Part shown: piece by piece, positions 5,221-49,684 of the stretch | Layout of the letters: the number at the start of each line of letters is the position of its first letter | Numbering within the stretch: position 1 is the stretch's first letter | Assembly (NCBI GenBank): GCA_964567185.1 | Contig: CAZMKZ010000001.1 | Location: forward strand, 13,507-77,506 | DNA from: an uncultured Thermodesulfobacteriota bacterium | GTDB lineage: Bacteria; Desulfobacterota; GWC2-55-46; JADFVP01 | Length of the DNA stretch: 64,000 bases | Direction of reading: 5' to 3' | Made by a program: the position numbers and the translations under genes | The notes under the pieces: model-generated | The model's database searches: none | Told to the model about the DNA's origin: nothing | Seen by the model: the letters and a program-made list of their open reading frames with translations, nothing else

Positions 5221-5804
5221 TAGCAGTCCTTTTTCCTTGTTGAACGCATGCTGAGTTCCTGCCTTGTGTTAATGTTGGCTACGGAGGCCTCTATATCCAC
5301 GCCTTTGAAGTCACTCTCTGTGAGTCTCTTTACCTTTACCCTGTCAAAGAGGGTCATTATTCGCAGGTCCTTTTTTTTAATCATCTCTTCTATCGGGTCA
5401 AGGCATCTTTTGTCGTACATGGCGTGCATGGGGTGAAGCCTCCCGCCTATAAAGGGCACAACCACAAGGGCGCCTTCTGCTGGGGTTGAGATAAGCCTTT
5501 GTACGGCCCCTGCGTTTATGTCGGGCATATCGCAGGCCGTTACAAAGGCCTGCTCTGAGCTTGAGTTCAGGAGCGCAGTATAGATGCCTCCGAGGCTTCC
5601 CGCGCCCTTGTAAAAATCGGGTATGGCCTCTGCGCCGAGCCCCTTGAAGAGATTGACCTCGTCGGCTATGATGAGCTTCCGGTCGAATACCTCGCTCAAG
5701 ACACCGAGGACCCGCTCGATAATGGCAGTGCCGTCCACCTCTATGAAGGCCTTGTTGGCGCCCATGCGCCTGCTCTGCCCCCCGGCAAGGACGGCCCCTG
5801 TCAT
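5220..5804 (-). CDS. mobA: molybdenum cofactor guanylyltransferase MobA
   Basis: GAVLAGGQSRRMGANKAF at the N-terminus and an MobA-like fold of ~190 aa. Adjacent to mobB. Confidence 0.8.
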   Translation of the reverse strand: MTGAVLAGGQSRRMGANKAFIEVDGTAIIERVLGVLSEVFDRKLIIADEVNLFKGLGAEAIPDFYKGAGSLGGIYTALLNSSSEQAFVTACDMPDINAGAVQRLISTPAEGALVVVPFIGGRLHPMHAMYDKRCLDPIEEMIKKKDLRIMTLFDRVKVKRLTESDFKGVDIEASVANINTRQELSMRSTRKKDC

Positions 5805-6304
5805 CTTTTGTCTACCTTTATAATCACATTCTCGATAATATCGGCAACACCCTTGAAGTCGTTAATATCAAGGAGGGGCCTGTCAGTATCCACGGGCCCG
5901 TCGCTTACAACGGCAATGAGGGAGGTATCGTCAATACAGGCGCGGGCCTCAGAGACCGACTTTCTGAAGACCTCAATCTTGGGCAGGTTTCCCGTCTTGT
6001 AGCCCTCTGTTATGACAACGTCAAGGTCGTTCATGAACGTGCCGATAGCCTCGGTAAGGGGCATCTCAACATCGGTGCTCTTGATAAAGGCCATTTTTTC
6101 CTTTGAGGTAATGAGAACGCTCACGGCCCCGGCCTGCTTGTGACGCCACGAGTCTTTTCCCTCGCGGTCTATCTCGAACCTGTGGGCATCGTGTTTTATG
6201 GTGCCCACCCTGAACCCCCTTTCCGTTAGTTCGGCCACTACCTTTACGATAAGCGTAGTCTTGCCGGAGCCGGAAAACCCTATTATGGATACCGCTGGAA
6301 TCAT
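5801..6304 (-). CDS. mobB: molybdopterin-guanine dinucleotide biosynthesis adaptor MobB
   Basis: P-loop IGFSGSGKTTL ... GTIKHDAHRFEIDREGKDSW is the MobB signature. Confidence 0.85.
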   Translation of the reverse strand: MIPAVSIIGFSGSGKTTLIVKVVAELTERGFRVGTIKHDAHRFEIDREGKDSWRHKQAGAVSVLITSKEKMAFIKSTDVEMPLTEAIGTFMNDLDVVITEGYKTGNLPKIEVFRKSVSEARACIDDTSLIAVVSDGPVDTDRPLLDINDFKGVADIIENVIIKVDKR

Positions 6305-6547: not shown

Positions 6548-7981
6548 ATGAAAAAGATACTCAGTAAGCCGAGAGACCTGCCCTCCGTAGAGGCATTGGC
6601 AAACGAAGAGTGCCTTGCAGGGCTCAGAGCTGATTACGGGGCGATCCTCGTGACGGACTCGGCGCGCGCTGTCATTGATGAGGCAAGAGATATACTGTCT
6701 TTTGGGCAAAAGGGCGTAAAGGGCGGTGAGGGGGGCGAATCCATCAGCGTTGATGTGCTTTTGAGCAGAGTGGTTGAGAGGGTGGAGGCCGTCATGGGCG
6801 GCGGGCTACGCAAAGTGATAAACGCCACGGGCACTGTCCTGCATACCAACCTCGGCAGAAGCGTGCTCTGCGACGAGGCCCTTCGCAAGGTTGCCCTTGC
6901 CTGCGCCTCGTACACGGACCTTGAGTTTGATATCGGCAGGGGAGCGCGGGGTGAACGCGATTCATTTTCCGTATCCCTTATAAAACAGCTTACTGGATGC
7001 GCTGAGGCCTCTATTGTTAACAACAACGCCGCGGCCCTGCTCATTACCCTTAATACGCTGGCCGAGGGCAGGGAGGTCATCATATCAAGGGGCGAGCTTA
7101 TAGAGATAGGCGGCTCATTCCGTCTGCCCGATATTATCACTAAGAGCGGCTGTATCCTGCGGGAAGTCGGCACTACGAACAGGACGCACGCCGCAGACTA
7201 CGTAAAGGCCATAGGGGAGAAGACGGCCCTTATATTGAAGGTCCATACGAGTAACTACACCATTGAGGGCTTTACGAGCGAGGTGGGCCTCAAGGAGCTT
7301 GTCTCTATTGGGGCGAAATACAACGTGCCCGTAGTGGAAGACCTTGGAAGCGGCGCTCTGCTTGACCTTACCGCCTATGGCCTGCCCCATGAGCCCCTTG
7401 TCTCGGAGAGCATCCGCGCAGGGGCGGGGTGCGTCACCTTCAGCGGAGACAAGCTCCTTGGCGGCCCGCAGGCAGGGCTTATTGCCGGAAATATGGACCT
7501 TGTGGAGAGGATAAGAAAAAATCCCCTCAAGAGGTCGCTTCGGGCGGGGAAACTAACGCTTGCCGCCCTTGAGGAGACCTTGAAATTGTATTTAACGCCT
7601 TCGAGGCTTCAAGAGCGCCTTCCGGCCTTGAGGCTCATGACCCGCCCTGTTGACGAAATCGAGGCCATGGCAGAAAAGGCCGCTGATATTATCAATAAGG
7701 ATAAGGGCGCGGGCCTCAATGCAACGGTAGAGGAGGCCAGCAGTGTAATAGGCGGCGGTTCACTGCCTGGCCGAACGCTTCCTACGATGGTAGTCTCCAT
7801 AAGGGGCGGCATGGGCCCCGCGGCTCTTTACAGGGCCTTTCTTGAGGCCCGCCCACCACTGCTCCCTGTGCTTGGAAGGATAAGCAAAGACAGCTTTATC
7901 CTCGACGCCCGCACCGTACTTGATGAAGGGGAATTTTTATCGGCCATCAGCACGATTGTCACCCGTATTAAAGGGGGGTAG
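6548..7981 (+). CDS. selA: L-seryl-tRNA(Sec) selenium transferase SelA
   Basis: 477 aa with an N-terminal SelA domain and the PLP-fold region VINATGTVLHTNLGRS and KVHTSNY, consistent with SelA. Confidence 0.85.
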   Translation: MKKILSKPRDLPSVEALANEECLAGLRADYGAILVTDSARAVIDEARDILSFGQKGVKGGEGGESISVDVLLSRVVERVEAVMGGGLRKVINATGTVLHTNLGRSVLCDEALRKVALACASYTDLEFDIGRGARGERDSFSVSLIKQLTGCAEASIVNNNAAALLITLNTLAEGREVIISRGELIEIGGSFRLPDIITKSGCILREVGTTNRTHAADYVKAIGEKTALILKVHTSNYTIEGFTSEVGLKELVSIGAKYNVPVVEDLGSGALLDLTAYGLPHEPLVSESIRAGAGCVTFSGDKLLGGPQAGLIAGNMDLVERIRKNPLKRSLRAGKLTLAALEETLKLYLTPSRLQERLPALRLMTRPVDEIEAMAEKAADIINKDKGAGLNATVEEASSVIGGGSLPGRTLPTMVVSIRGGMGPAALYRAFLEARPPLLPVLGRISKDSFILDARTVLDEGEFLSAISTIVTRIKGG

Positions 7982-22569: not shown

Positions 22570-22995
22570 ATGAGTAATCTTGTGAGGATTCAGGAGGCCC
22601 CCTTTTCCATGGAGGAAGTGCACGAGGAAGTTAAGAAGTCCTCTACGGGCATAGGCGCCCTTGTGCATTTTATCGGCACGGCGAGAGACCTTTCCAGGGG
22701 TGTGGAGATAAAGGGTCTCGACTTCGAGCACTATCCCGGCATGGCCGAGAAAAAGCTCACGGACATCCGCAGGCGCGCCCTTGATAACTTCAATATCATG
22801 GAGATGGCCATAGTGCACAGGGTAGGCCCAATCGCCATAGGCGAGGACATAGTCATCATCGTCGCGGCCTCGGCCCATCGTAATGACGCCTTTATGGCCT
22901 GCGAGTGGGCCATTACGGAGGTGAAGCGCACCACCCCCATTTGGAAGAGCGAGACCACGGCCGAGGGCGATGTATGGGTCTCGGATACCCCTTGA
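22570..22995 (+). CDS. moaE: molybdopterin synthase catalytic subunit MoaE
   Basis: FSMEEVHEEVKKSSTGIGALVHFIGTAR... is MoaE-like. 141 aa. Confidence 0.85.
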   Translation: MSNLVRIQEAPFSMEEVHEEVKKSSTGIGALVHFIGTARDLSRGVEIKGLDFEHYPGMAEKKLTDIRRRALDNFNIMEMAIVHRVGPIAIGEDIVIIVAASAHRNDAFMACEWAITEVKRTTPIWKSETTAEGDVWVSDTP

Positions 22996-22997
22996 AT

Positions 22998-23504
22998 ATG
23001 GATGACAAGACCATCATAAGAGCGGCGATACTCACAATAAGCGATAAGGGCTGCGCCGGTGAGAGAGAGGACTTAAGCGGCCCGGAGATAGAGGCCCAGA
23101 TAATAGACCTTCCCGCGCTGATTGCGGCCCGTGACATAGTGGCCGACGAGGTTCCGCTTATTAGCGCAAAACTTATCCATTATGTGGATGAGCTTGGCAT
23201 AGACCTTGTCATTACCACGGGCGGCACCGGTGTAACGCCGCGGGATGTTACGCCTGAGGCCACAAGGGCGGTCCTTGAGAGGGAACTGCCGGGGATGAGC
23301 GAGGCCATGCGTATGGAGAGCCTGAAAAAAACGCCTTATGCCATGATCTCACGCGCCCTCTGCGGGACGCGAGGCTCTTCTCTTATAATAAATCTACCGG
23401 GAAGTCCCCGCGCGGTGCGGGAAAACCTTACCGTGGTAATGCCCGCCCTCCTGCATACAATACTGAAGATAAAGGGCTCGCCGGAAGAGTGCGGCTCTAA
23501 TTAA
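22998..23504 (+). CDS. mog: molybdenum cofactor biosynthesis protein MogA/MoaB (start at ATG 22998)
   Basis: AAILTISDKG...GPEIEAQI...DLVITTGGTGVTPRDVTPEAT is the MoCF_biosynth (MogA/MoaB) signature. Confidence 0.8.
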   Translation: MDDKTIIRAAILTISDKGCAGEREDLSGPEIEAQIIDLPALIAARDIVADEVPLISAKLIHYVDELGIDLVITTGGTGVTPRDVTPEATRAVLERELPGMSEAMRMESLKKTPYAMISRALCGTRGSSLIINLPGSPRAVRENLTVVMPALLHTILKIKGSPEECGSN

Positions 23505-37970: not shown

Positions 37971-37995
37971 CATAGCACAATTGAATAAATGGATA

Positions 37996-38150
37996 TCTTA
38001 TCCAGAGTGGTGGAGGGACTGGCCCGATGAAACCACAGCAACCGGTGCATCACTGCATGTCAGGTGCTAAATCCAGCAGGGTTTGCAAAAACCCTGAAAG
38101 ATAAGAAGAACTAAGAGACCCTCTTCTTATCCCAAGAAGAGTTTTTTTTT
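37996..38150 (+). ncRNA. SAM-I (S-box) riboswitch with intrinsic terminator expression platform
   Basis: TCTTATCCAGAGTGGTGGAGGGACTGGCCCGATGAAACCACAGCAACC...CTGAAAGATAAGAAG. The GGTGGAGGGACTGGCCCGATGAAACC core matches the SAM-I kink-turn/P2-P3 consensus, and P1 is TCTTATC/GATAAGA. A terminator CTCTTCTT-ATCCC-AAGAAGAG plus T9 lies at 38121-38150, and its 5' arm can alternatively pair with the P1 3' strand. Confidence 0.85.
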
Positions 38151-38218: not shown

Positions 38219-39472
38219 ATGAAGTACATGAAAGGATTAAAGTGCAGGGAGTGCGGGAAGCGCTATCCCCTGGAACCGATCCATGTCTGCGAGTTCTGTT
38301 TCGGGCCCCTTGAGGTGGACTATGATTACGAGAAGATAGGCAAGTCCATTACCAGAGACATCATTACCACCAGAGCCCCTAATATGTGGAGATACAGGGA
38401 GTTGCTTCCCATAGACGCCGAGCCCACGGTGGGCAACAACTCCGGATTTACGCCCCTTGTAAGGGCCTATAACCTGGGCGAGGCCCTGGGCGTTAAAGAA
38501 CTGTACATAAAGAACGACGCCGTTAATTTCCCGACCCTCTCTTTCAAGGACAGGGTGGTCTCCGTGGCCATCTCAAGGGCCAGAGAGATGGGCTTTGACG
38601 TCATCGCCTGCGCCTCAACGGGCAACCTGGCCAACTCCGTTGCCGCCAACTCCGCGGCCTGCGGCCTTGATAGCTATGTCTTCATACCCTATGACCTTGA
38701 GCAGACCAAGATAACGGGAACCCTTATCTACGGCACTAACCTCGTGGGCATAAAGGGGACCTATGACGAGGTGAACAGGCTCTGCAGCGAGATAGGCGGC
38801 AAATACGGATGGGCCTTTGTAAACATCAACATCAGACCCTTTTATGCCGAGGGCTCCAAGACATTCGGCTACGAGATAGCCGAGCAGTTGGGCTGGAAGC
38901 TCCCGCAGCACGTTATTGTGCCCATGGCCGGGGGCTCTCTCATCACAAAGATATGGAAGGCCTTCAAGGAGTTCAAGGCCCTTGGTTTTGTCGATTCTCC
39001 GCCGGCGAAGATATACGGCGCGCAGGCAACGGGATGCGCCCCCATAGTAACGGCTGTTAAGGAAAAGAGCGAGCTCATCCGTCCGGTCATGCCCGATACT
39101 ATCGCCAAATCCCTTGCCATCGGCAACCCGGCCGACGGCTTTTACTCCGCAAGGGCCATCAGGGAGAGCAATGGCTGGGCCGAGGACGTTTCAGATGAAG
39201 AGATAATCGAGGCCATGAAGCTCCTTGCCGAGACAGAGGGCATTTTTGCCGAGACAGCCGGCGGCGTTACCGTGGGCGTGACTAAAAAACTCATCGAGCA
39301 GGGCAGGATACCCCGTGACGAGTCCATAGTCATCTCCATTACGGGCAACGGCCTTAAGACTCAGGAGTGCCTGGCGGGAAAAATCGCCGAGCCCCCTGTA
39401 ATAGAGGCTAAACTTGCCGAGTTCGACGCCCTGCTTGAGGGCGGCTCCGTGCGGAAGACGGCGGTAAAATAA
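38219..39472 (+). CDS. threonine synthase-like PLP enzyme (fold type II) with an N-terminal zinc ribbon; candidate O-phosphohomoserine-dependent homocysteine synthase (MetM-like, MA1715-like)
   Basis: CRECGKRYPLEPIHVCEFCFGPLEV zinc ribbon. PLP lysine motif FPTLSFKDRVVSV. ThrC-like length of 417 aa. First gene after a SAM riboswitch. Confidence 0.8.
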   Translation: MKYMKGLKCRECGKRYPLEPIHVCEFCFGPLEVDYDYEKIGKSITRDIITTRAPNMWRYRELLPIDAEPTVGNNSGFTPLVRAYNLGEALGVKELYIKNDAVNFPTLSFKDRVVSVAISRAREMGFDVIACASTGNLANSVAANSAACGLDSYVFIPYDLEQTKITGTLIYGTNLVGIKGTYDEVNRLCSEIGGKYGWAFVNINIRPFYAEGSKTFGYEIAEQLGWKLPQHVIVPMAGGSLITKIWKAFKEFKALGFVDSPPAKIYGAQATGCAPIVTAVKEKSELIRPVMPDTIAKSLAIGNPADGFYSARAIRESNGWAEDVSDEEIIEAMKLLAETEGIFAETAGGVTVGVTKKLIEQGRIPRDESIVISITGNGLKTQECLAGKIAEPPVIEAKLAEFDALLEGGSVRKTAVK

Positions 39473-39677
39473 GGGACGGGGCGTGATCGGGGGAGGCCCG
39501 TAGAGTATTGGCGCGGGGCAGGATTAACCGGCAGGGCCTGTGCAATATAACAAGGGCTGCCCGGTAGAGAGGCGGGTTCGGCTTGTAATAGTGACCCTCT
39601 TTCTGTTATCATTAGGGTTTAAGAAATATAAAAATTTTCCCTCTAAGAGGGGCGGTTTTCTTAAGGAGGTTTTTTTT

Positions 39678-40673
39678 ATGACGGACCATTTCATAGAGGA
39701 TAAGAGCCATAAGGTAGACCTTGACCTTGAGAACCTCAGCGGTAAGGTTAACTTCGGCGACCTCAAATCCGGGGGGTTCATAAAGCAGCGCCAGAAGGAC
39801 CTCTTTACCGTAAGGCTCCGCTGTCCCGGCGGCAGGATGACTACGGACAAGCTCGTGGAGATATCGAGGCTCGCAAAAAAATACAGCAAAGAGGGTGTGG
39901 TGCACTTCAGCTACCGCCAATCCCTTGAGATACTATATGTGGATTATAAGGACTTTCACGCCCTTGTGGGCGAGCTTGAGAAGATAGGTCAGAAAGTGGC
40001 CTCATGCGGGCCCCGTGTAAGGGTGCCCACTGCCTGCGGCGGATGCGAGTATAACCCCAACGGGCTTATAGACGCGCAGAAGATGGCCCGCATGGTGGAC
40101 GGTAAGTTCTTCGGAACAAATACGCCGCATAAGTTCAAGACCTCTTTTTCGGGCTGTCCCATAGATTGCTCAAGGACCGTTGAGATGGACCTCGGTTTTC
40201 AGGGCGTAGTGGACCCCGAGTGGGAGCAGGACCTCTGCACGGGATGCACCATCTGCTCCGAGGCCTGTAAAGAGGGGGCCATTGAGGCCCACCCCGATAC
40301 AGGAGAACCAATCTTCGACGTTAGTAAATGCCTTTACTGCGCCGACTGCATACGGGCCTGTCCCACCGAGGCGTGGAAACCCGGCAAGCACGGCTTTCTT
40401 GTGCGCATTGGCGGCAAACATGGCCGTCATCCCCTTGAGGGCGTTGAAATCTGCCGTTTCCTACCGGAGGAAAAGGTAAGCGACGCCATAGAGATGACCG
40501 TCAGGTGGTATAAAGAAAACGGCAAGAGTTTCGAGAGGATAGGGCACACCCTGCAGAGGGTGGGCATGGACGGTTATCTTGACCACATGGCCCCGCTCTT
40601 CGGTGATTATGCCGTTAGACCAAAGCATCCGCCCACGGACCGTCCGCTGATCAATAAGCCCGAAGGGGCCTGA
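39678..40673 (+). CDS. small dissimilatory-type-like sulfite reductase (Dsr-like, alSiR-type) with an inserted 2x[4Fe-4S] ferredoxin domain (start ATG 39678 with RBS AAGGAGG)
   Basis: NIR_SIR-type Cys cluster SCGPRVRVPTACGGC ... GCPIDCSRT. Ferredoxin motifs CTGCTICSEAC and CLYCADCIRACP. Confidence 0.7.
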   Translation: MTDHFIEDKSHKVDLDLENLSGKVNFGDLKSGGFIKQRQKDLFTVRLRCPGGRMTTDKLVEISRLAKKYSKEGVVHFSYRQSLEILYVDYKDFHALVGELEKIGQKVASCGPRVRVPTACGGCEYNPNGLIDAQKMARMVDGKFFGTNTPHKFKTSFSGCPIDCSRTVEMDLGFQGVVDPEWEQDLCTGCTICSEACKEGAIEAHPDTGEPIFDVSKCLYCADCIRACPTEAWKPGKHGFLVRIGGKHGRHPLEGVEICRFLPEEKVSDAIEMTVRWYKENGKSFERIGHTLQRVGMDGYLDHMAPLFGDYAVRPKHPPTDRPLINKPEGA

Positions 40674-40788: not shown

Positions 40789-41028
40789 ATGAGTGAGATA
40801 AAGGCAAAGGACAGCATCGATTTAAGGGGCGTCATGTGTCCCACAAACTTTGTAAAGACCAAGCTCAAGCTCGAGGCCATGAACCCCGGCGAGATACTCG
40901 AAGTGGTGCTTGACAGCGGCGAGCCTATCGCCAACGTGCCGAAAAGCGTCAAGGAAGAGGGACACAAGATAGTCAAGGTAAGCAAAGACGACGGCTCATT
41001 CAGGATTTTGATAGAGGTCTCTGAATAG
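40789..41028 (+). CDS. TusA/SirA-family sulfurtransferase-like protein
   Basis: 79 aa. ...IDLRGVMCPTNFVKTKLKLEAM... is a Cys-Pro TusA-like motif in a two-layer alpha/beta fold. Confidence 0.65.
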   Translation: MSEIKAKDSIDLRGVMCPTNFVKTKLKLEAMNPGEILEVVLDSGEPIANVPKSVKEEGHKIVKVSKDDGSFRILIEVSE

Positions 41029-41063: not shown

Positions 41064-41348
41064 ATGTCAGTAAAGGTGAGGATACCCACACCCCTGAGGA
41101 AGATTACAAAGGACAACGACGAGGTCACTGCCGACGGGGCCACGGTCTCCGAGGTAATAGACGACCTGGAGAAAAACTATCCGGGAATAAAGGAGAGGAT
41201 ATGCGAGGCCGACGGGAACCTCCGCCGCTTTGTAAACCTCTATCTCAATGACGAGGACATTCGCTTCAAGGATAACCTCGCTACTGCACTGAAAGACAAC
41301 GATGAACTCTCCATCATTCCGGCCATCGCCGGAGGAGGTGGCCTTTGA
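41064..41348 (+). CDS. ThiS/MoaD-family sulfur-carrier protein (CysO/HcyS/MetO-like) whose C-terminus ...AIAGGGG-L* needs proteolytic exposure of Gly-Gly
   Basis: 94 aa beta-grasp pattern with a glycine-rich C-terminus followed by a single Leu before the stop at 41346-41348. Confidence 0.7.
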   Translation: MSVKVRIPTPLRKITKDNDEVTADGATVSEVIDDLEKNYPGIKERICEADGNLRRFVNLYLNDEDIRFKDNLATALKDNDELSIIPAIAGGGGL

Positions 41349-41581
41349 AAAAAAAGGTCTATCTAACCTATCCTCCGGAGAGGGTGAGAGAGCCTCTTCT
41401 CTGTGAGTGCGTGCGCAGGTTCAATGTCGTAACCAACATAAGGCAGGCCTCTGTTACGGACAAGATAGGCATCGTGGCCCTTGAGCTCGAAGGCGAGCCC
41501 ACGGAGATAGAAAAGGCCATGGACTTTTTTACTGAAAACGGCGTGAAGGTCGAGCCTATTGAGATGAATATTATCGAGTAG
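41345..41581 (+). CDS. stand-alone NIL-domain protein (the MetN C-terminal-type domain). TTG start overlaps the carrier-gene stop by 4 nt (TTGA); RBS GGAGGAGGTG
   Basis: KVYLTYPPERVREPLLCECVRRFNVVTNIRQASVTDKIGIVALELEGEPTEIEKAMDFFTENGVKVEPIE aligns by eye to the MetN NIL domain (LTFTGE...PLISEL.RRFGVDVNIL.GNIE...G.L.VELEGD...ALAYL.E.GV.VEVL). Confidence 0.7.
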   Translation: MKKKVYLTYPPERVREPLLCECVRRFNVVTNIRQASVTDKIGIVALELEGEPTEIEKAMDFFTENGVKVEPIEMNIIE

Positions 41582-41679
41582 CGCCCTCTCACCTTTCCCC
41601 GTCCTTGTCCAAAGGACGGGGAGCCTTGCAAATTCAACTCCCATTGGATTCTTTTCCTTGAAATCACTGCATATTATTC

Positions 41680-41706
41680 TTGACAAACCCGCTAAGGTAT
41701 TATAAT
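41680..41706 (+). promoter_or_regulatory. possible internal promoter (TTGACA-15 nt-TATAAT) upstream of the CysM-like gene, preceded by a 10-bp hairpin CCCCGTCCTT-GTCCA-AAGGACGGGG at 41594-41619
   Basis: Hexamers and hairpin seen directly. The spacer is short at 15 nt. Confidence 0.3.
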
Positions 41707-41810
41707 TTAAAAACTTGATTGTTTTAGTAAGGTAATAAAAAATGCCTTGTAAAAAGCGAGGTTTTAAGGCGCCTCTCCATAATGCTTAACATAATTCCAA
41801 GAGGCCTTGA

Positions 41811-42767
41811 ATGAGCAGCCATACCTTGAAGAGTTTTGACGCAGGGAACGAGTTTGCCATCCCGAAGGCGAGGTCCTCGGCCCTTGACCTTGTGGGCAAT
41901 ACGCCCCTTGTGAGGATAAACAGCATTACAGCGGGTCTTCCAGCCGGCGTAGAGGTATACGCCAAGCTCGAGTCCGCCAACCCCGGGGGCTCTGTAAAGG
42001 ACAGGCCGGCGCTCCGTATGATAGAAGACGCCGAGAAGAGCGGAAGGCTTACCAGGGATAAGATAATACTGGACTCCACATCGGGAAACACGGGCATTGC
42101 CTATGCGTGGATAGGCGCCGTAAAGGGCCATCGCGTAGAGCTGGTGGTTCCGGAAAACGTCAGCGCCGAGAGAAAAAAGATACTCGACGCCTTTGGGGCC
42201 AAGGTCATATTTTCAAGCCCCTTCGAGGGCTCCGACGGTGCGATACGTCTTGCCTGGAAGCTCTACGTGGATAACCCCGAAAAGTACTGCAAGCTCGATC
42301 AGTACAATAACCCCTCCAACCCCCTTGCCCATTACCATGGCACGGGAGTTGAGATAATCGAGCAGACAGGGGGCAGGATCACGCACTTTGTCACCACCAT
42401 AGGCACGGGCGGCACCATAATGGGGACCATGCGCAGGCTCAAGGAGTTTAACAGCAATATCGAAGTAACCGCCGTTGAGCCCGACAACCCCATGCATGGG
42501 CTTGAGGGCCTGAAACACATGGCCTCGTCCATAGTGCCGGGCATCTATCACGAGGACTCGCTGGACAGGAAGATACCGGCCTCCACCGAAGAATCTTACG
42601 AGATGGCCAAGAGGCTAGCCCGTGAAGAGGGCCTTCTTGTGGGGCAGTCATCGGGGGCGGCCATGCTCGGAGCGCTCAAGGTGGCCATGGAGCTTAAAGA
42701 GGGTCTTGTTGTGACAATATTCCCCGACGGCGGAGATAAGTACCTCTCCACAAGCCTCTGGGATTAA
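41811..42767 (+). CDS. cysteine synthase-like PLP enzyme (CysM/CysK family, fold type II)
   Basis: GNTPLVRINSI...VYAKLESANPGGSVKDRPALRMIEDAEKSGRL...DSTSGNTGIAYAWIGAVKGH is the classic CysK/CysM N-terminal half, including the PLP lysine. Confidence 0.85.
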   Translation: MSSHTLKSFDAGNEFAIPKARSSALDLVGNTPLVRINSITAGLPAGVEVYAKLESANPGGSVKDRPALRMIEDAEKSGRLTRDKIILDSTSGNTGIAYAWIGAVKGHRVELVVPENVSAERKKILDAFGAKVIFSSPFEGSDGAIRLAWKLYVDNPEKYCKLDQYNNPSNPLAHYHGTGVEIIEQTGGRITHFVTTIGTGGTIMGTMRRLKEFNSNIEVTAVEPDNPMHGLEGLKHMASSIVPGIYHEDSLDRKIPASTEESYEMAKRLAREEGLLVGQSSGAAMLGALKVAMELKEGLVVTIFPDGGDKYLSTSLWD

Positions 42768-43010
42768 GGGCTACGGGGAGCCCGGGCAGATTATTATTTT
42801 AAATGGCTGACAACAGCCGGTATTGATTTTTTTGGCCTGTCTTTTTTTGAAAAAAGAAGGCCACGCGGTTTTTTTTGATGGTTTCGGCTTCACGGGTTAT
42901 GCTTTGCTTTGTCCATCGTGCAAGTGTTTCCATGCGGCTACAGGCCGCTTATAAATGTGATTAAAGGGGCGTATTGCCCATAACGTGTAAATAAAGATAA
43001 GGGGCAAGTA

Positions 43011-43463
43011 ATGGGTCTACTCTCAAAGTTCAAGAAAAAGAATAAGCTGAAGGTGCCTAAGGACGTTTACGATATCATCATTGAACATGCCAGAGAGGAG
43101 TATCCCCATGAGTGTTGCGGAGTTCTCATAGGTAACGCCATGATGGGCAGAAAGATATTCTACGCCGACAAATGCACGAACCTGAACCGCGAGAGCGCAC
43201 ATAACAGGTATCTCATGGACCCCAAGGAGATAAATCTTGCCGATAAGGGTGCGCGCTCGCAGAGCCTTGAGCTTATGGGCTTTTATCACTCTCATCCGGA
43301 CCATCCGGACAGGCCCTCGGAGTACGACAGGGAGATGGCCCAGCCCGGATACTCATATATAATAGTCTCCGTAAAGGGCGGTACCGAGTTCTCCTTGAAG
43401 TCATGGACCTTTAACGAGGACGATGAACCCTTCAAGGAAGAGCCCGTGGAGATAGGCAAATAA
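43011..43463 (+). CDS. JAMM/MPN+ family metalloprotease (Mec+/HcyD/QbsD-like)
   Basis: E...ECCG, HSHPDHPDRPSEYD (JAMM motif HxHx7Sx2D). 150 aa. Confidence 0.85.
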   Translation: MGLLSKFKKKNKLKVPKDVYDIIIEHAREEYPHECCGVLIGNAMMGRKIFYADKCTNLNRESAHNRYLMDPKEINLADKGARSQSLELMGFYHSHPDHPDRPSEYDREMAQPGYSYIIVSVKGGTEFSLKSWTFNEDDEPFKEEPVEIGK

Positions 43464-43584
43464 AAACCCGGAGGGGTATGTTTGCAGTATACTTTCGGCG
43501 TTAGCGTCCCTGTAATGGGGTGAGTTTTCTTTTTTTGCCGCGATACTACATTTTGTTTTTGCATAGAGGGGGTTAGAGGTCAAG

Positions 43585-44394
43585 ATGGATTTTACCGATG
43601 AACAGATAGAGCGTTACTCAAGGCATATCATACTTCCGGAGGTAGGCGGAAAGGGGCAGGCAAAGCTCCTTGAGTCCAGGGTCTTTGTCCTCGGCGCGGG
43701 GGGGCTCGGTTCTCCGGCCCTGCTTTACCTTGCCGCGGCGGGCGTGGGCACCATAGGGGTTGCAGACGGCGACGTTGTGGATGTAAGCAACCTTCAGCGC
43801 CAGATAATACACGACAACAATACCGTTGGTATGCCAAAGGTGGATAGCGCGCGAAAGTCCATTGAGGCCCTTAATCCCGATGTTGAGGTAAAGACCTTTA
43901 ACGGCAGACTTGATACGGAGAACATCAGAGAGGTCCTTCGGGATTACGATGTGGTCCTTGACGGCTCTGATAATTTTCCAACGCGCTACCTCATGAACGA
44001 CGCCTCTTTTTTCGAGGGCAAGACCCTTGTCTCGGGGTCCATGTTCAGGTTTGACGGGCAGGTCTCTGTCTTCAAGCCGCAGGAGGGCTTTCCCTGTTAC
44101 AGATGCCTCTACCCGGAGCCCCCGCCAAAGGGCATGGTTCCGTCCTGTCAGGAGGCCGGTGTGCTTGGGGCCCTTGCGGGAGTTATAGGGGTACTGCAGG
44201 CCGTGGAGGCCATAAAAGAGATACTCTCCATCGGCAAATCCCTTGCCGGCGAGCTCTTGATATTCGACGCCCTTGCCATGAGTTTCCGCAAGGTCAAGGT
44301 GCGCACAGACCCTGATTGCGCGCTCTGCGGCGGGAATGCTACCATAAAGGAGCTCTCGCTCTATGAGCAGGCCCCATGCGAGCTGCGTACCTGA
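43585..44394 (+). CDS. ThiF/MoeB/HcyF-type E1-like adenylyltransferase (no rhodanese domain)
   Basis: RYSRHIILPEVGGKGQAKLLESRVFVLGAGGLGSPALLYLAAAGVG nucleotide-binding motif. C-terminal Zn motif CYRC...CALCGG. Confidence 0.85.
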   Translation: MDFTDEQIERYSRHIILPEVGGKGQAKLLESRVFVLGAGGLGSPALLYLAAAGVGTIGVADGDVVDVSNLQRQIIHDNNTVGMPKVDSARKSIEALNPDVEVKTFNGRLDTENIREVLRDYDVVLDGSDNFPTRYLMNDASFFEGKTLVSGSMFRFDGQVSVFKPQEGFPCYRCLYPEPPPKGMVPSCQEAGVLGALAGVIGVLQAVEAIKEILSIGKSLAGELLIFDALAMSFRKVKVRTDPDCALCGGNATIKELSLYEQAPCELRT

Positions 44395-44461
44395 TTCGGC
44401 TTTTCGGACTTATGCCGCAAACAGGGGACGGAGAAAGCGGTCTTTTACCTGAGGCGGTTGA

Positions 44462-45697
44462 GTGGTATTGAAAAGCCTGGATTACTTCAAGAACCCCGGA
44501 GCCCTTAAGATAGACCTTATGCTGAGGGGGGCGGCCATAGAAGACCCCCTTGTGAAGGCGCATGCCTGCGGGGCCTCTGGCATAGATATACTCCTGCCTA
44601 AAAAGACCCTCGTAAACATCCCCTGCGAAGACTGGTTTACCGTGCGCTCCCCTTATCTCATTAAAAAGTCTGAAAAGGGGTATGTCCTTACAAACGGCAA
44701 GGCCGAGGTCAGGGTAAGCATACTTCCGCCGCCGAAGTTTTACGGACTGAAGACAAGTTCAGGCGTAAGGCTTGGAGAAATAGCCAGCACTCACGGGAGT
44801 TACACCGTCATAACGCCCGACCAGAGGTGCGCTTTTTTTAAATCAAGCGCCCAGTGCCGTTACTGCGCGGGAAACTTCAGGTCCGACGCCGCCGCGTCCG
44901 GCGCGCGCGTCTATACAGTAGACGAGGTATTAGAGACAGTAAAAGCGGTATTCAGGGAGAGGGCCTCCGGGATAATATACCTCTCAATAGGTTTTGCCGA
45001 GGGCGATGACGGGGGTATAAAATTTCTTGAGCCCTATGTAAGGGCCATTAAGGGGCATTTTAACTGCCTTGTCGCAGTAGAGGCCCTGCCCCCCGCGCGA
45101 AACGAGTGGATCGACAGGGCGTACGCCAGCGGCGTTGATTCACTGCTCTATAACCTTGATATCTTTGATAAGGAGCTTTTTTCCATAATCTGCCCGGGCA
45201 GGGCCGGCCTCATAGGCAGGAAGAGGACCCTTGAAGCCCTGAAATACGCCGCGGGTATCTTCCCTAACGGCACGGTGGCCTCGCACCTCATTGTGGGGCT
45301 TGAACCGCCGGGTTCCACTATCATGGGCATAGATTATCTTACGGATATCGGCGTAGTGCCCATACTGCCCATATTCCGGCCTTCAAGGGAGAGGCCCCTT
45401 GATGTTACGGACCTTCATGCCGAGGTGATTATACCGGTATATCAGCACCTGTACCGGTCCTTGAAGAAAAAGGGCATTAACTTCAACTGGGTCCGCGACA
45501 TAAGCATGGTGACAACCCCCGTGGAGGGCAGGTTCCTCCTTGGGGAAAAAGAGGGCTCAGCCTCTCTGCTTGATAATTTTTACGGCTCAAAGCTCGGCCT
45601 TAAGACGGCATGGGGGCTCTCGGCCCTTCGAAGGCGGCTGCGGGTAAAAAAGCCCGCCAATGAAGAAAACCCCCCAGGCGGGTCTGAAAAGACATAA
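44462..45697 (+). CDS. uncharacterised protein with the Cys triad CAFFKSSAQCRYC (CX8CX2C). Possibly a non-canonical radical-SAM-like TIM-barrel enzyme, or alternatively the COG1900/DUF39 homocysteine-synthesis protein
   Basis: GTG start. 411 aa. Glycine-rich stretch IYLSIGFAEGDDGG about 35 aa after the Cys triad, and later ...VPILPIFRPSRERPL, reminiscent of radical SAM beta-strand motifs. No canonical CX3CX2C. Confidence 0.35.
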   Translation: MVLKSLDYFKNPGALKIDLMLRGAAIEDPLVKAHACGASGIDILLPKKTLVNIPCEDWFTVRSPYLIKKSEKGYVLTNGKAEVRVSILPPPKFYGLKTSSGVRLGEIASTHGSYTVITPDQRCAFFKSSAQCRYCAGNFRSDAAASGARVYTVDEVLETVKAVFRERASGIIYLSIGFAEGDDGGIKFLEPYVRAIKGHFNCLVAVEALPPARNEWIDRAYASGVDSLLYNLDIFDKELFSIICPGRAGLIGRKRTLEALKYAAGIFPNGTVASHLIVGLEPPGSTIMGIDYLTDIGVVPILPIFRPSRERPLDVTDLHAEVIIPVYQHLYRSLKKKGINFNWVRDISMVTTPVEGRFLLGEKEGSASLLDNFYGSKLGLKTAWGLSALRRRLRVKKPANEENPPGGSEKT

Positions 45698-45710
45698 AGG
45701 GAGTATTACC

Positions 45711-47135
45711 GTGAGAGTGGAGATAGACAGGAGGCCCATATCAATAATCATCGCCAATAAGGCGCTGAGGCCCCTTTTTTTCCTTCTCCTTACGGTGGGA
45801 TTTTTCTCATTCCTATACCTCCCCGTGCCCGAGGGGCTGGGGCAGGGCGGCATGAGGGCCATAGCCGTCTTTCTTCTATGCCTTGTGCTCTGGGTCTCAA
45901 ATGCCGTTCCCGTGGCCATTACGGGGCTCTTCGCCATAGTCCTCGTGCCGCTTCTGGGCATACTGCCAAGGGGCGATACGTATTCCCTATTCGGCAATGA
46001 GGCCGTGTTTTTCATACTCGGCGCCTTTATCCTCTCCGGGGCGGTCATGCAGTCCGGCCTCTCGAACAGGGTGGCCCTGCGGCTGATGGAAAAATACGGC
46101 GGCTCTCCGAAGAGGCTTATCATAAGCATATTTCTTCTCGCCGCGGCACTCTCATTCGTAATGAGCGAGCACGCCGTTGCGGCCATGCTCTTTCCCATAG
46201 TGCTTGAGATATCAAAGAGCCTGAAGCTCCGGCCCGGCGTTTCCAACTACGGAAAGCTCCTCTTCTTTGCCCTTGCCTGGGGTTCGGTCATAGGCGGGGT
46301 GGGGACCTTTCTCGGCGGAGCGCGTGTGCCCCTTGCCATGGGCATTCTGAAGGAGACCACGGGCTCTACCATAGGCTTTCTGGATTATACCGTGGCCGTC
46401 GCGCCCCTTGTCGTGGTGCTGCTGGTGGTGGGATACATCGTGCTGACAAGGTTCTTTCCCATTGACATCGAGGGCGTAGAGAGCGCGCACGAGGTCATTG
46501 TAAGGCGCGCCCGCGCCCTTGGCAAGGTGCGCCCGGCAGAGTACGCCGTAGGGGCCATACTCCTTATTACCATCTTTTTCTGGGTGACCATTGGCAAGAC
46601 CGTGGGCCTTGCCGCCATCGCCATGGTCTCGGTGATGGCCCTCTTTGTATTGAAGCTCGTAAAGTGGCGTGAAATTGAGGAGTATGTGAACTGGGGAATA
46701 ATCCTCATGTACGGCGGGGCTATTATCCTCGGCACGGCCCTTGACAGGAGCGGCGCCGCCAAATGGATGGTAGACGCCATTATGACTCAATGGGCCGAGA
46801 CGCCGGTGACGGTGCTGGCGCTCTTTTCACTCCTGGCCATACTGCTCACCGAGTCCATGAGCAACGCCGCCGTCATCGCCGTGCTCCTGCCCGTGAGCAT
46901 CGGCATGGCCGGAAGCACCAATATGAGCCCGGAAGTCCTTACCTATGCCGTGGCCATTCCGGCGGGTCTGGCCTTTATGCTGCCCATGAGCACGCCGGCC
47001 AACGCCATCGCCGTATCAAGCGACTACATATCCGTGCGCGATATGGCAAAGGGAGGGGTGATAATGTTCATCACCTCATGGGTCACCTTTAATCTCATGG
47101 CCCATTTTTACTGGCCCCTCATAGGGCTAAGGTAG
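45711..47135 (+). CDS. SLC13/DASS-family anion permease (Na+/sulfate symporter-like). Start at GTG 45711 with RBS AAGGGAG; the track start 45660 overlaps the upstream gene
   Basis: Polytopic. The PVPEGLGQGGMRAIAVFLLCLVLWVSNAVPVAITGLF hairpin-loop motif is typical of DASS transporters. Confidence 0.65.
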   Translation: MRVEIDRRPISIIIANKALRPLFFLLLTVGFFSFLYLPVPEGLGQGGMRAIAVFLLCLVLWVSNAVPVAITGLFAIVLVPLLGILPRGDTYSLFGNEAVFFILGAFILSGAVMQSGLSNRVALRLMEKYGGSPKRLIISIFLLAAALSFVMSEHAVAAMLFPIVLEISKSLKLRPGVSNYGKLLFFALAWGSVIGGVGTFLGGARVPLAMGILKETTGSTIGFLDYTVAVAPLVVVLLVVGYIVLTRFFPIDIEGVESAHEVIVRRARALGKVRPAEYAVGAILLITIFFWVTIGKTVGLAAIAMVSVMALFVLKLVKWREIEEYVNWGIILMYGGAIILGTALDRSGAAKWMVDAIMTQWAETPVTVLALFSLLAILLTESMSNAAVIAVLLPVSIGMAGSTNMSPEVLTYAVAIPAGLAFMLPMSTPANAIAVSSDYISVRDMAKGGVIMFITSWVTFNLMAHFYWPLIGLR

Positions 47136-47224: not shown

Positions 47225-47689
47225 ATGGGCAATAAAATACTACTCGTTCTATCGACTCACTCGTACTCGGACCAGGCCGTTGAATATGCTGTCACGAGGG
47301 CCGCGCAGGAGGGCCGTGTGCTTGTGGCCTTCTTTCTGCTTGAGTCGGAGCTTGCCAGAGAGGCCTCGGAGAGGTTCTCGGATATCGGCTTTACAGGCGA
47401 CAAGCCTTCGGCCACGCTCACGGAGTCTCTTATGCGTGAGTACAGGCAGAGGGGCTACGAGGCCCTTGGCAGGGCGCAGATAAGGGCCATGGAGGAGGGC
47501 GTGAGCTTTGAGCCTCTTCTGGATGAAGGGCCTTATGTCTCCACCATACTCGATGCCATAGAGGTCAATGATATAGGACTTGTGGTTATACAGAAGCGCA
47601 GGGAGAGGTCTCTTTTCAAGTACTTTAAAAAGGGTCTTTCCGCAGAGGTGAAAGAGATGGCCTCCTGTGAGGTCGTTATAGTGGAGTAA
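47225..47689 (+). CDS. universal stress protein (UspA family)
   Basis: 154 aa Usp alpha/beta fold. NKILLVLSTHSYSDQAVEYAV...CEVVIVE. Confidence 0.75.
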   Translation: MGNKILLVLSTHSYSDQAVEYAVTRAAQEGRVLVAFFLLESELAREASERFSDIGFTGDKPSATLTESLMREYRQRGYEALGRAQIRAMEEGVSFEPLLDEGPYVSTILDAIEVNDIGLVVIQKRRERSLFKYFKKGLSAEVKEMASCEVVIVE

Positions 47690-47724: not shown

Positions 47725-48432
47725 ATGGCAGTAAAGAAGTGGTCTGAAGAAGAACTTAAAGAGGTATCCGCGGAGCTTGAAGACAAGGGGCCGCAGGCGG
47801 CCATTCAGTGGGCCGTGGACAATTTTGAGAGGCAGGACCTGTCCCTTGCCTGTAGCTTCGGCGCCGAGGATGTAGCCCTGGTGGATATGCTCGTGAAGAT
47901 AAAACCTGACGCCAGGATATTTTATCTTGATACAAACAAGCTCTTTAAGGAAACCATTGATGTTATGGAGCGCCTTAAGGAGAAGTACCACATAAACCCT
48001 GAAAAATACTGCACAAAGATGAGCCTTGAGGAGCAGGCCGAAAAATTTGGACCTGAGCTCTGGAAAAAAGACCCCAAGCAGTGTTGCGATATCAGGAAGA
48101 TAAAACCTCTTAGAGAGGCCCTGTCTGGGCTCAGCGCATGGATAACTGGCATAAGAAGGGACCAGGCCCCTGCAAGGGCCAATGCCCCTGTCGTTGGCTG
48201 GGATTCCATGTTCAACCTGGTGAAGATAAACCCCCTTGTCAAATGGACGAGCGACGATGTATGGGATTATATCCGCGCCAATGACGTGCCCTACAATGTG
48301 CTCCACGACAGGAATTATCCCTCCATCGGCTGTGAGCCATGCACCAATGAGGTAAAACCCGGCGAAGACCCCAGGGCCGGAAGATGGGCTGGTTTCAAGA
48401 AGACCGAGTGCGGCCTTCATGACAAATCATAG
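47725..48432 (+). CDS. cysH: assimilatory adenylyl-/phosphoadenylyl-sulfate reductase (CysH family, Fe-S type)
   Basis: PAPS_reduct fold (SFGAEDVALVDMLVKI). Fe-S Cys pairs KQCCDIRK and IGCEPCT. Catalytic C-terminal ECGLH. Confidence 0.85.
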   Translation: MAVKKWSEEELKEVSAELEDKGPQAAIQWAVDNFERQDLSLACSFGAEDVALVDMLVKIKPDARIFYLDTNKLFKETIDVMERLKEKYHINPEKYCTKMSLEEQAEKFGPELWKKDPKQCCDIRKIKPLREALSGLSAWITGIRRDQAPARANAPVVGWDSMFNLVKINPLVKWTSDDVWDYIRANDVPYNVLHDRNYPSIGCEPCTNEVKPGEDPRAGRWAGFKKTECGLHDKS

Positions 48433-48520: not shown

Positions 48521-49684
48521 GTGGAGTCATTGATACCGCCCCATGGCGGCGTGCTTGTTAACAGGGTCGTAGAGGGTAAGGCCCGTCTTGATATGGAAAA
48601 AGCCTCTCTTGATATGAATACCCTCACCCTTAATGCGAGGGAGATATCAGACCTTGAGATGATAGCCACGGGCGGGTTCAGCCCCCTCGAGGGGTTCATG
48701 TGTCATGACGATTATCACTCTGTCATGGATACCATGACGCTGATAAACGGCCTGCCCTGGACCATACCCGTAACCCTTTCTGTAACCACGGAGGAGGCGG
48801 CCGGACTTAAAGAGGGCGTGGATGTTGCCCTTAATAACGAAAAAGGGGAGCTTCTCGCTATCCTTCATCTTGAGGAGATTTTCAAGCATGACAAGGAAAA
48901 AGAGGCCCTTCGAGTATACGGCACCGCCGAAGACGCGCACCCGGGGGTGAAAAACGTCTATGCAATGGGCGAGATGCTTCTTGGCGGCAAGGTCTCCATG
49001 CTCAAACGCACCGAGTACGGCGAGTTCAATGAATACCGCAGGGACCCGCTTGAGACAAGACAGCTCTTCAAGAAGAACGGCTGGAGGCGTGTTGTGGGCT
49101 TTCAGACAAGAAACCCCATACACAGGGCCCATGAGTACATACAGAAGTGCGCCCTTGAGACAGTTGACGGTCTTCTCATACACCCCCTTGTGGGCGAGAC
49201 AAAGGCCGACGACATACCTGCCGATGTGCGGATGCGTTGCTACACGACCCTTATGGAGAAGTATTACCCCGCCGACAGGGTAGTGCTCTCCGTATACCCG
49301 GCGGCCATGCGCTACGCAGGCCCCCGTGAAGCCGTCTTTCATGCCCTGATTCGCAAAAATTACGGCTGTACGCATTTTATCGTAGGCAGAGACCACGCAG
49401 GGGTGGGCGGGTATTACGGCACCTTTGACGCCCATCTCATATTCGACCAGTTCGAGCCCGAGGCCATAGGCATAGCGCCCATGTTCTTTGACTATACCTT
49501 TCATTGCAGGAGCTGCGGCGGCATGGCCTCGTACAAGACCTGCCCCCACGATTCATCGGAGCATATTACCCTTTCGGGAACAAAGGTAAGGGAGATGCTG
49601 AGGGCCGGAACGTGCCCTCCGCCTGAATTCTCAAGGCCGGAGGTGGCAAAGGTCCTCATTGAAGCCATGAAGCCGGCGGATTAA
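48521..49684 (+). CDS. sat: sulfate adenylyltransferase (ATP sulfurylase)
   Basis: GTG start with [26 protein letters not shown] and GRDHAGVG motifs. Confidence 0.9.

Follow-up and report, generated by a model that had tools for sequence, protein, structure and literature searches.

In the genome of an uncultured Thermodesulfobacteriota bacterium, three genes encoding a CysM-type pyridoxal 5'-phosphate (PLP) enzyme, a JAMM/MPN+ zinc metalloprotease and a ThiF/MoeB-type E1 adenylyltransferase follow one another on contig CAZMKZ010000001.1, in the middle of a 13-gene sulfate-assimilation cluster that lies entirely on the + strand. The whole stretch of DNA that was analysed, referred to here as the window, comprises 64,000 nucleotides (nt), and its features were read from the letters themselves, with Pfam and NCBIfam profiles at their curated cutoffs, and with Rfam. 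A gene for a ThiS/MoaD-like sulfur carrier lies upstream of the trio, and the four products are considered here as a candidate system for cysteine synthesis from a protein thiocarboxylate. The gene order of the cluster is kept in approximately 45 genomes of uncultured Thermodesulfobacteriota. The gene identities and motifs, the linkage and the fusions, the tails of the carriers and the promoter are reported below as observed. The carrier and the trio are positioned as follows:

41064-41348, + strand: ThiS/MoaD-like sulfur carrier of 94 amino acids, 69.5 bits with NCBIfam SAMP1
41811-42767, + strand: CysM-type PLP enzyme of 318 amino acids, matched by the PALP and cysKM profiles
43011-43463, + strand: JAMM/MPN+ zinc metalloprotease of 150 amino acids, matched by Prok-JAB
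43585-44394, + strand: ThiF/MoeB-type E1 adenylyltransferase of 269 amino acids, matched by ThiF

Motifs and family assignments of the trio

The three open reading frames (ORFs) coincide exactly with those of the initial annotation, and the features that it had named, the SVKDR lysine, the GNTGIAYA loop and the CxxC...CxxC site of the E1, were all found. The CysM-like protein scores 229 bits with Pfam PALP and reaches the cysKM subfamily model of NCBIfam (TIGR01136; 348.8 bits against a cutoff of 344.15); it carries SVKDR at residues 61-65, including the Schiff-base Lys63, TSGNTG at 90-95 (TSGNTGIAYA from residue 90) and GTGGT at 198-202. The JAMM protein scores 93.9 bits with Prok-JAB (cutoff 25), and its zinc motif is complete (E34; H93-S-H95-x7-S103-x2-D106). 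For the E1, scores of 267 bits with ThiF and 323.7 bits with the MoeB subfamily model NF004281 (cutoff 266) were obtained. Its motifs comprise GAGGLG at 37-42, the zinc-site cysteines C171xxC174 and C245xxC248, and Cys188, and its cysteine stretches align with PCYRCL, GCEVCG and TCVEAGV of Escherichia coli MoeB (PDB 1jw9). The E-values of the domain matches in the trio range from 1e-27 to 1e-80, which excludes chance.

ThiF is the only domain that Pfam and NCBIfam detected in the 269-residue E1, and the rhodanese domain that defines MoeZ was not found in it. As the MoeZ equivalog is also missed by a wide margin (340 against a cutoff of 647), the description of this protein as MoeZ-like in the initial annotation had to be abandoned; the lack of a rhodanese domain likens it to MoeB or HcyF instead.

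Linkage, fusion and clade of the CysM-type enzyme

Relatives of the CysM-type enzyme are very numerous; the 120 best are 75-93% identical to it, and their named sources are uncultured Thermodesulfobacteriota or Deltaproteobacteria. A genome scan with this protein yielded 80 loci, 71 with at least 70% CysM identity and nine more distant (54-65%). Linkage was counted by tblastn with the window proteins, the denominators being the loci with enough sequence among the 71. CysM is directly followed by the JAMM gene in 63/63 close relatives, the E1 gene lies downstream in 50/50, and the carrier gene is found upstream in 42 of 50. A gene for a variant radical S-adenosylmethionine (SAM) protein is likewise downstream in 45/45, directly after E1. 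The pairing of CysM with JAMM extends well beyond these relatives, since the two genes adjoin each other in 7/9 of the distant loci, which come from Planctomycetes, Nitrospinota, Abditibacteriaceae, Elusimicrobia and an unclassified bacterium. In these distant CysM-JAMM loci, tblastn found no match to the ThrC-like enzyme that is encoded upstream of the carrier in the window.

Two of the distant loci have contents of their own. In a Nitrospinota locus (L074, 1-5037), several small ORFs come after CysM and JAMM, together with a TusA-like ORF (motif CPY) and a gene for a cysteine-rich protein; judged by eye, the products are similar to the DsrE/F/H and HdrD/DsrK types, which suggests that another sulfur-delivery route may feed the same CysM-JAMM pair. 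In a locus from Abditibacteriaceae (L076, 7469-10900), a putative Rrf2-type regulator, recognized by eye, is followed by ATP sulfurylase, JAMM and CysM; the last two are 12 nt apart, with no carrier gene between them or nearby.

Gene fusions provide a second line of evidence. In a search of 50%-identity cluster representatives for CysM homologues, with Pfam domains assigned to the results, homologues of 440-480 amino acids were found, and three of them (P0125, P0127 and P0132) are fusions of CysM with JAMM. Both domains are carried by 120/120 of the best relatives of P0127, each from a separate 90% cluster, and the named sources of these relatives are Acidobacteriota or Vicinamibacterales. The protease motif HxHx7SxxD is kept in 120/120 of them and the PLP-lysine motif in 119/120. 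On two long contigs from Acidobacteriota-like genomes, the fusion gene is directly followed by a gene for ThiS-ThiF-rhodanese (L081, 8001-10838) or ThiS-ThiF (L082, 8001-10429), so that a two-gene operon is formed, and the other neighbours are unrelated genes. This compact system contains a carrier, an E1, a sulfurtransferase, CysM and a protease, and nothing else. The carrier of the window is 46% identical over 93 amino acids to the ThiS domain of L081 (E = 1e-27), the E1 of the window is 58% identical to the L081 E1 domain, and the JAMM protein of the window is 38% identical to the fused JAMM domain; from these domain matches, all four window proteins are homologous to domains of the compact two-gene system. 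In L081 the ThiS domain is joined to E1 through ...SVAGG-VGAVE, and it follows from the sequences that in both L081 and L082 the predicted carrier must be cut from the E1 polypeptide after AGG.

The fusions also bear on the radical SAM protein. It could be supposed that the product is not cysteine, and that CysM, with the help of the radical SAM protein, joins the carrier thiocarboxylate (carrier-COSH) or another nucleophile to an activated amino acid in the synthesis of a secondary metabolite or cofactor. The invariable position of the radical SAM gene after E1 in the close relatives agrees with this, as does the use of other nucleophiles by SbnA and the cysteate synthases, which score 192-197 bits here. 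However, no radical SAM gene was detected in any of the seven distant CysM loci with enough downstream sequence or among the called neighbours of the L081 and L082 fusion genes, which places it outside the conserved core, and the genes around the trio form a plain sulfate-to-sulfide route. We give this explanation very little credence.

The clade to which the CysM-type enzyme belongs was examined in an alignment of the window protein, E. coli CysM, Mycobacterium tuberculosis CysM (its sequence verified against PDB 3dwg) and 127 representatives. The window protein is 41.6% identical to E. coli CysM and 39.6% identical to M. tuberculosis CysM, and those two are 41.7% identical to each other. In a neighbour-joining tree, which is rough and was built with no bootstrap, the window protein and the three fusion representatives group in one large clade; the other clades are those of E. 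coli CysM (IPGIRRW), M. tuberculosis CysM (..VQGLRSL, with a GWKYLS tail), the enzymes fused to a cysteinyl-tRNA-synthetase-like domain (HKIQGLKN) and CysK. The clade of the window protein is marked by the loop HGLEGLKHM (residues 229-237), which is invariant in the 120 closest relatives, present as such or as a close variant in 117/120 fusions, and not found in the E. coli CysM, M. tuberculosis CysM or CysK clades of the alignment. Two other kinds of fusion were seen among the representatives. In P0128, P0139, P0146 and P0163, of approximately 750-800 amino acids, the CysM domain with the HKIQGLKN loop is combined with a class-I cysteinyl-tRNA-synthetase-like catalytic domain, and in P0169 a hexapeptide (CysE-like) domain is joined to CysM.

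With these data, the simplest alternative can be weighed, namely that CysM is an ordinary O-acetylserine sulfhydrylase using free sulfide or thiosulfate in a sulfur island, and that JAMM and E1 serve only the homocysteine branch of the ThrC-like enzyme. E. coli CysM is indeed the closest solved structure (234 bits, against 199 for M. tuberculosis CysM), the cysKM cutoff that is passed is a generic one, and some sources label homologues as S-sulfo-L-cysteine synthase. On the other hand, the E. coli-type CysM equivalog TIGR01138 is missed (376.4 against 394.2) and the IPGIRRW loop (Arg210/Arg211) is not present. CysM is adjacent or fused to JAMM in loci without the ThrC-like gene, among them L081 with its unrelated neighbours, and an intact fused protease would have no role beside a sulfide-dependent enzyme. 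Taken with the promoter data given below, this makes the ordinary sulfhydrylase an unlikely explanation.

Upstream operon, promoter and carrier tail

The cluster consists of two modules. Module A comprises a SAM riboswitch and genes for the ThrC-like enzyme, a small sulfite-reductase-like protein, TusA, the carrier and a NIL-domain protein; module B comprises CysM, JAMM, E1, the variant radical SAM protein, a sulfate symporter, Usp, CysH and Sat. Apart from the four genes given above, the following features were recorded:

37995-38107, + strand: SAM riboswitch (Rfam RF00162, 94 bits), controlling the module A operon
38121-38150, + strand: hairpin (38121-38141) and T-run, the terminator of the riboswitch
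38219-39472, + strand: ThrC-like PLP enzyme carrying a zinc ribbon at its N-terminus; candidate homocysteine synthase of the MetM type
about 39675-40673, + strand: small NIR_SIR/Fer4 sulfite-reductase-like protein
40789-41028, + strand: TusA/SirA-type sulfurtransferase (Cys17-Pro), candidate stand-in for the rhodanese domain not found in the E1
41345-41581, + strand: NIL-domain protein of 78 amino acids
41677-41706, + strand: promoter of the CysM module (TTGACA at 41680-41685, 15-nt spacer, TATAAT at 41701-41706)
41692-41701, + strand: box CTAAGGTATT inside the promoter spacer, reaching the -10 element
41707-41810, + strand: conserved leader from the promoter to the CysM start, with a second box TAAGGTAA at 41728-41735 and the ribosome-binding site AAGAGG; candidate operator region
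42833-42863, + strand: terminator-like hairpin after CysM, with T8 6 nt later at 42870-42877
43505-43535, + strand: hairpin in the JAMM-E1 spacer, followed by a T-run
44462-45697, + strand: variant radical SAM protein with Cx8Cx2C (C123, C132, C135), fourth gene of module B
45660-47135, + strand: permease of the Na/sulfate symporter family
47225-47689, + strand: Usp
47725-48432, + strand: CysH of the adenosine 5'-phosphosulfate (APS) type (TIGR02055, 246.9 bits against a cutoff of 235.3)
48521-49684, + strand: ATP sulfurylase (Sat)

The riboswitch operon that the initial annotation had placed upstream of the trio is thus real, and the promoter of its own that had been suggested for the trio at 41680-41706 is substantiated as well. 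The sequence is a perfect TTGACA-N15-TATAAT, which was missed by a simple promoter scan because its spacer is 15 nt long. Within the window, the core TTCTTGACA-N10-GGTATTAT has a single exact match, and 17 related loci each contain one as well, located upstream of CysM; in alignments of these loci the intergenic DNA flanking the core is otherwise divergent. Near-identical versions were also found in three loci in which module B stands alone. The spacer between NIL and CysM is 229 nt here and always long in relatives (median 260 nt, minimum 104), whereas the CysM-JAMM spacer of relatives has a median of 54 nt and a lower quartile of -5, with frequent overlaps; in this genome it measures 243 nt, and the JAMM-E1 spacer 121 nt. 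The conserved promoter, the long NIL-CysM spacer and the short CysM-JAMM spacer together support a separate promoter for the trio. For the sulfhydrylase alternative, it is favourable that the carrier is co-transcribed with the ThrC-like gene and not with CysM, and unfavourable that the conserved promoter is found at the NIL-CysM boundary and not at that between CysM and JAMM.

A box of the form (C/G)TAAGGTAT(T/A) occurs twice, in the promoter at 41692-41701 and approximately 35 nt downstream at 41727-41736. Both copies are found at the same positions in L001-L007, L019, L029, L032, L035, L039, L040, L048, L050, L060 and L071, and in a subgroup of relatives they are about 11 nt closer, that is, about one helical turn. 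RNA pairing is predicted for the boxes, and compensatory changes do not maintain it; the two boxes look like an operator for a regulator of the CysM module. No riboswitch or leader RNA was found by Rfam at E<=1 over 41300-44600, including the three intergenic spacers, and the folding z-scores of the spacers are unremarkable (-1.6 for the CysM leader). The hairpins that follow CysM and JAMM have no conserved counterpart in an alignment of the nearest relatives, and on this ground they were dropped as established terminators. Directly after the NIL stop codon there is a GC-rich 12-bp hairpin with no T-run (41595-41623; -24.9 kcal/mol for a 79-nt stretch, z = -3.9), and L001 and L071 have a comparable one; stabilisation of the 3' end of the riboswitch operon, or its factor-dependent termination, may be the role of this hairpin.

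Several other genes of the cluster deserve comment. The start of the sulfite-reductase-like gene is ambiguous, as the mechanical ORF begins at a GTG at 39540, while homology to relatives and the Pfam domains begin near an ATG at 39675. The encoded NIR_SIR enzyme is small, has a 2x[4Fe-4S] ferredoxin domain inserted into it and scores far under the cutoffs of the AsrC and DsrA/B models. The NIL gene starts with a TTG, and its overlap with the carrier stop codon amounts to 4 nt (the median in relatives is -7 nt), an arrangement that points to translational coupling of NIL with the carrier. NIL domains bind methionine in MetN and also occur in the homocysteine system of methanogens. The profiles that match the radical SAM protein are NF045502 and, less strongly, that of the MSMEG_0568 family; when the PDB was searched with its sequence, no relative came up. 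The rest of the window consists of ordinary chromosomal genes (holA, murJ, selA, ftsH, obg, proB and others), and no cysE, cysK or serB is present within its 64 kb.

The carrier ends in ...PAIAGG followed by GGL. Searches with a hidden Markov model built from carrier orthologues found exactly one carrier gene per locus, always in module A. In 46 of 50 orthologues of the carrier, the conserved AGG is followed by a variable stretch of 1-6 residues; of the other four, two stop at GG and two are aberrant at the end. Such a variable tail implies that a C-terminal hydrolase is required before adenylation, and hence that JAMM would have a maturation role besides adduct cleavage. The scheme of the initial annotation, in which the trio works with carrier-COSH and JAMM cleaves the adduct, is kept in this respect and needs an addition, since JAMM must presumably also trim the carrier tail in the manner of HcyD.

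The carrier passes the SAMP1 equivalog of NCBIfam (69.5 bits against a cutoff of 60), and the best-named matches of JAMM and E1 include desampylase, UbaA and MoeB. It could accordingly be proposed that these three proteins form a conjugation-deconjugation system of the SAMP/UbaA/desampylase type, or a MoaD/MoeB pair for the molybdenum cofactor (Moco), with CysM as an incidental or regulatory neighbour. Genes related to Moco (mobA, mobB and a MoCF_biosynth/MoaB-Mog-like gene) are in fact present elsewhere in the window, as is selA (5220-6304 and 22905-23504; 6548-7981). However, JAMM misses the archaeal desampylase equivalog of NCBIfam (84 against 130), and the E1 falls below the cutoffs of UbaA (344 against 450) and of the MoeB equivalog (411 against 449). 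In addition, the cluster has no MoaE or E2-like gene, all conserved partners are sulfur-assimilation genes, and the fusion of JAMM to CysM argues for a metabolic role. Conjugation or Moco synthesis as the main function of these proteins is therefore highly improbable in our judgement. There is no moaD or moaE in the window, and the E1 may also serve Moco synthesis.

A putative route to cysteine and its relation to known systems

On the strength of these sequence comparisons, we consider it likely that the trio and the carrier encoded 460 nt upstream constitute a protein-thiocarboxylate-dependent cysteine synthase system within a complete assimilatory sulfate-reduction cluster. The initial annotation had assigned CysM, JAMM, E1 and the upstream carrier to the cysteine branch, and this assignment is strengthened by comparative genomics, through the linkage of 63/63 and 50/50, the adjacency in other phyla and the fusions. 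Each chemical step of the route, as well as the sulfur donor and the acceptor, is modelled on the CysO system of M. tuberculosis and the HcyS system of Wolinella. First, JAMM would trim the tail of the carrier (GGL here) to expose Gly-Gly, and E1 would adenylate the terminal glycine. Reduced sulfur, supplied by the sulfate symporter, Sat, the APS-type CysH and the small sulfite reductase of the cluster, would then turn the acyl-adenylate into carrier-COSH, arriving either as free sulfide or via TusA standing in for the rhodanese domain. CysM would form a PLP-aminoacrylate from an activated serine, which would be attacked by carrier-COSH, and an S-to-N acyl shift would give carrier-Gly-Gly-Cys; hydrolysis of the carrier-Gly-Gly-Cys bond by JAMM would finally release cysteine and recycle the carrier. 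The ThrC-like enzyme is probably served by this carrier, E1 and JAMM too, for homocysteine; its arrangement, a ThrC homologue with a carrier and a SAM riboswitch, matches the MetM/MetO system discussed below. As for the acceptor, we lean weakly towards O-phosphoserine rather than O-acetylserine, because no cysE is present in the cluster or window and because O-phosphohomoserine would offer a parallel.

Several observations weigh against this carrier-dependent reading. The only carrier gene of the locus lies behind the SAM riboswitch, so that SAM would throttle cysteine synthesis, barring read-through, another carrier or the direct use of sulfide. Eight close relatives have CysM-JAMM-E1 with no carrier in the 2.5-10 kb examined upstream; in one of them (L030), in which module B stands alone, the DNA upstream seems, by inspection, to hold housekeeping genes (aroA, cmk and ispH). 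Hairpins that resemble terminators lie in both the CysM-JAMM and the JAMM-E1 spacer of the present genome, and co-transcription of the trio is thus not assured. The best solved relative of the clade is E. coli CysM, a sulfide- or thiosulfate-dependent O-acetylserine enzyme. Furthermore, the window protein has no counterpart of the C-terminal extension of M. tuberculosis CysM, ending 8 residues after YLS, and at the position of M. tuberculosis Arg220 (E. coli Arg210) it has Lys235, which is invariant in the clade. With 39.6% identity, a separate clade and no extension, the orthology to M. tuberculosis CysM implied by the initial annotation does not hold. Arg220 of M. tuberculosis CysM is reported, by Agren in 2008, to be taken as binding the phosphate of O-phosphoserine, and the initial annotation had named this arginine as a test for O-phosphoserine use. 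When the test was run, Lys235 was found at the position, and the residue does not discriminate, because the O-acetylserine-using E. coli CysM and a CysE-fused clade (P0169) have an arginine there as well.

A bolder version of the carrier-dependent reading can be formulated, which we regard as possible though rather doubtful. In this version, uncultured Thermodesulfobacteriota would run all of their sulfur assimilation through one ubiquitin-like carrier: the sulfite reductase and TusA would pass reduced sulfur to the carrier activated by E1, with no free sulfide set free, an obligately carrier-dependent CysM of the HGLEGLKHM type and a MetM-type ThrC would act on O-phosphoserine and O-phosphohomoserine, NIL and the radical SAM protein would be unrecognised components, and the route, including the fusions of Acidobacteriota, would be widespread in bacteria and not peculiar to actinobacteria. 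Should the carrier-dependent reading of the trio be correct, the annotation of cysteine biosynthesis would change in many environmental genomes, in which these genes are now called cysteine synthase B or S-sulfocysteine synthase. The HGLEGLKHM-type signature would then be a simple sequence marker for the pathway, and the two-gene fused system of L081 a compact candidate for reconstitution.

To our knowledge, M. tuberculosis is the only organism with biochemical proof of cysteine synthesis from a carrier thiocarboxylate; there, the CysO/CysM/Mec+/MoeZ pathway is said to have been described by Burns in 2005 and by O'Leary and Agren in 2008. In that pathway, cysteine is made from a carrier thiocarboxylate in an O-phosphoserine-dependent manner (PMC9547175, PMC3227635). 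The locus described here shares with it the four roles of carrier, E1, CysM-type enzyme and JAMM protease, as well as the genetic linkage of the PLP enzyme with the protease. It differs in the clade of CysM, in an E1 without rhodanese, in the host, which belongs to Thermodesulfobacteriota rather than Actinobacteria, and in a tailed carrier that is placed in a SAM-riboswitch operon with a ThrC-like enzyme. In a 2022 review, mycobacterial CysM was regarded as confined to actinobacteria; judged from synteny and fusion, a different, JAMM-linked CysM clade that is tied to E1 and carrier appears in at least six phyla. With E. coli and Salmonella CysM (O-acetylserine sulfhydrylase B; PDB 2bhs, 2v03, 2jc3), the window protein shares a short loop of the CysM type rather than the CysK type, but the loop reads HGLEGLKHM and not IPGIRRW, and the linkage or fusion to JAMM is not a property of E. 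coli CysM.

The methionine pathway of Wolinella succinogenes, which reportedly consists of HcyS, HcyD, HcyF, MetY and Sir and was reportedly described by Krishnamoorthy and Begley in 2011, offers a second model. The link to it drawn in the initial annotation stands in part. As in Wolinella, one or more extra C-terminal residues of the carrier would be cut by JAMM, the E1 has no rhodanese domain, and a sulfite reductase is clustered with sulfate-assimilation genes. Unlike in Wolinella, MetY (O-acetylhomoserine sulfhydrylase) is absent and the PLP enzymes belong to the CysM and ThrC types, with TusA, NIL and the radical SAM protein as additions. In Streptomyces albulus, the MetM/MetO pair is described as a homocysteine pathway that borrows a Mec-type protease and a MoeZ-type E1 from the cysteine branch (Hasebe 2024, as summarized in a GapMind preprint of 2026 and in PMC12172450). 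Judged by the gene arrangement and the description given in those summaries, the upstream operon of the window is similar, with a ThrC homologue beside a small carrier behind a SAM riboswitch, whereas the protease and E1 lie directly downstream together with CysM; the likeness thus concerns the upstream operon and not the trio.

Neighbourhoods of this kind were predicted by Iyer, Burroughs and Aravind in 2006 (PMC1779556). Their type 4e contains ThiS/MoaD, JAB, a rhodanese-less E1, SirA, 3'-phosphoadenosine 5'-phosphosulfate (PAPS) reductase, ATP sulfurylase and sulfite reductase, their type 4c contains ThiS/MoaD, E1, JAB and cysteine synthase, and rhodanese-less E1s were found always to be accompanied by SirA/TusA (PMC1779556). 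All components of type 4e are present between 39675 and 49684, and O-acetylhomoserine sulfhydrylase and APS kinase are absent from the cluster, so that the locus combines types 4c and 4e. Type 4e had O-acetylhomoserine sulfhydrylase and type 4c a rhodanese-fused E1, whereas a cysteine synthase is found here with a rhodanese-less E1 and TusA, and the ThrC-like enzyme, the NIL protein and the radical SAM protein go beyond both types. Since the idea was predicted by comparative genomics in 2006, the present work refines and extends it and does not introduce a new principle. By analogy with the characterized systems, the logic of the locus would be that of CysO/CysM/Mec+/MoeZ of M. tuberculosis combined with features of HcyS/HcyD/HcyF of Wolinella.

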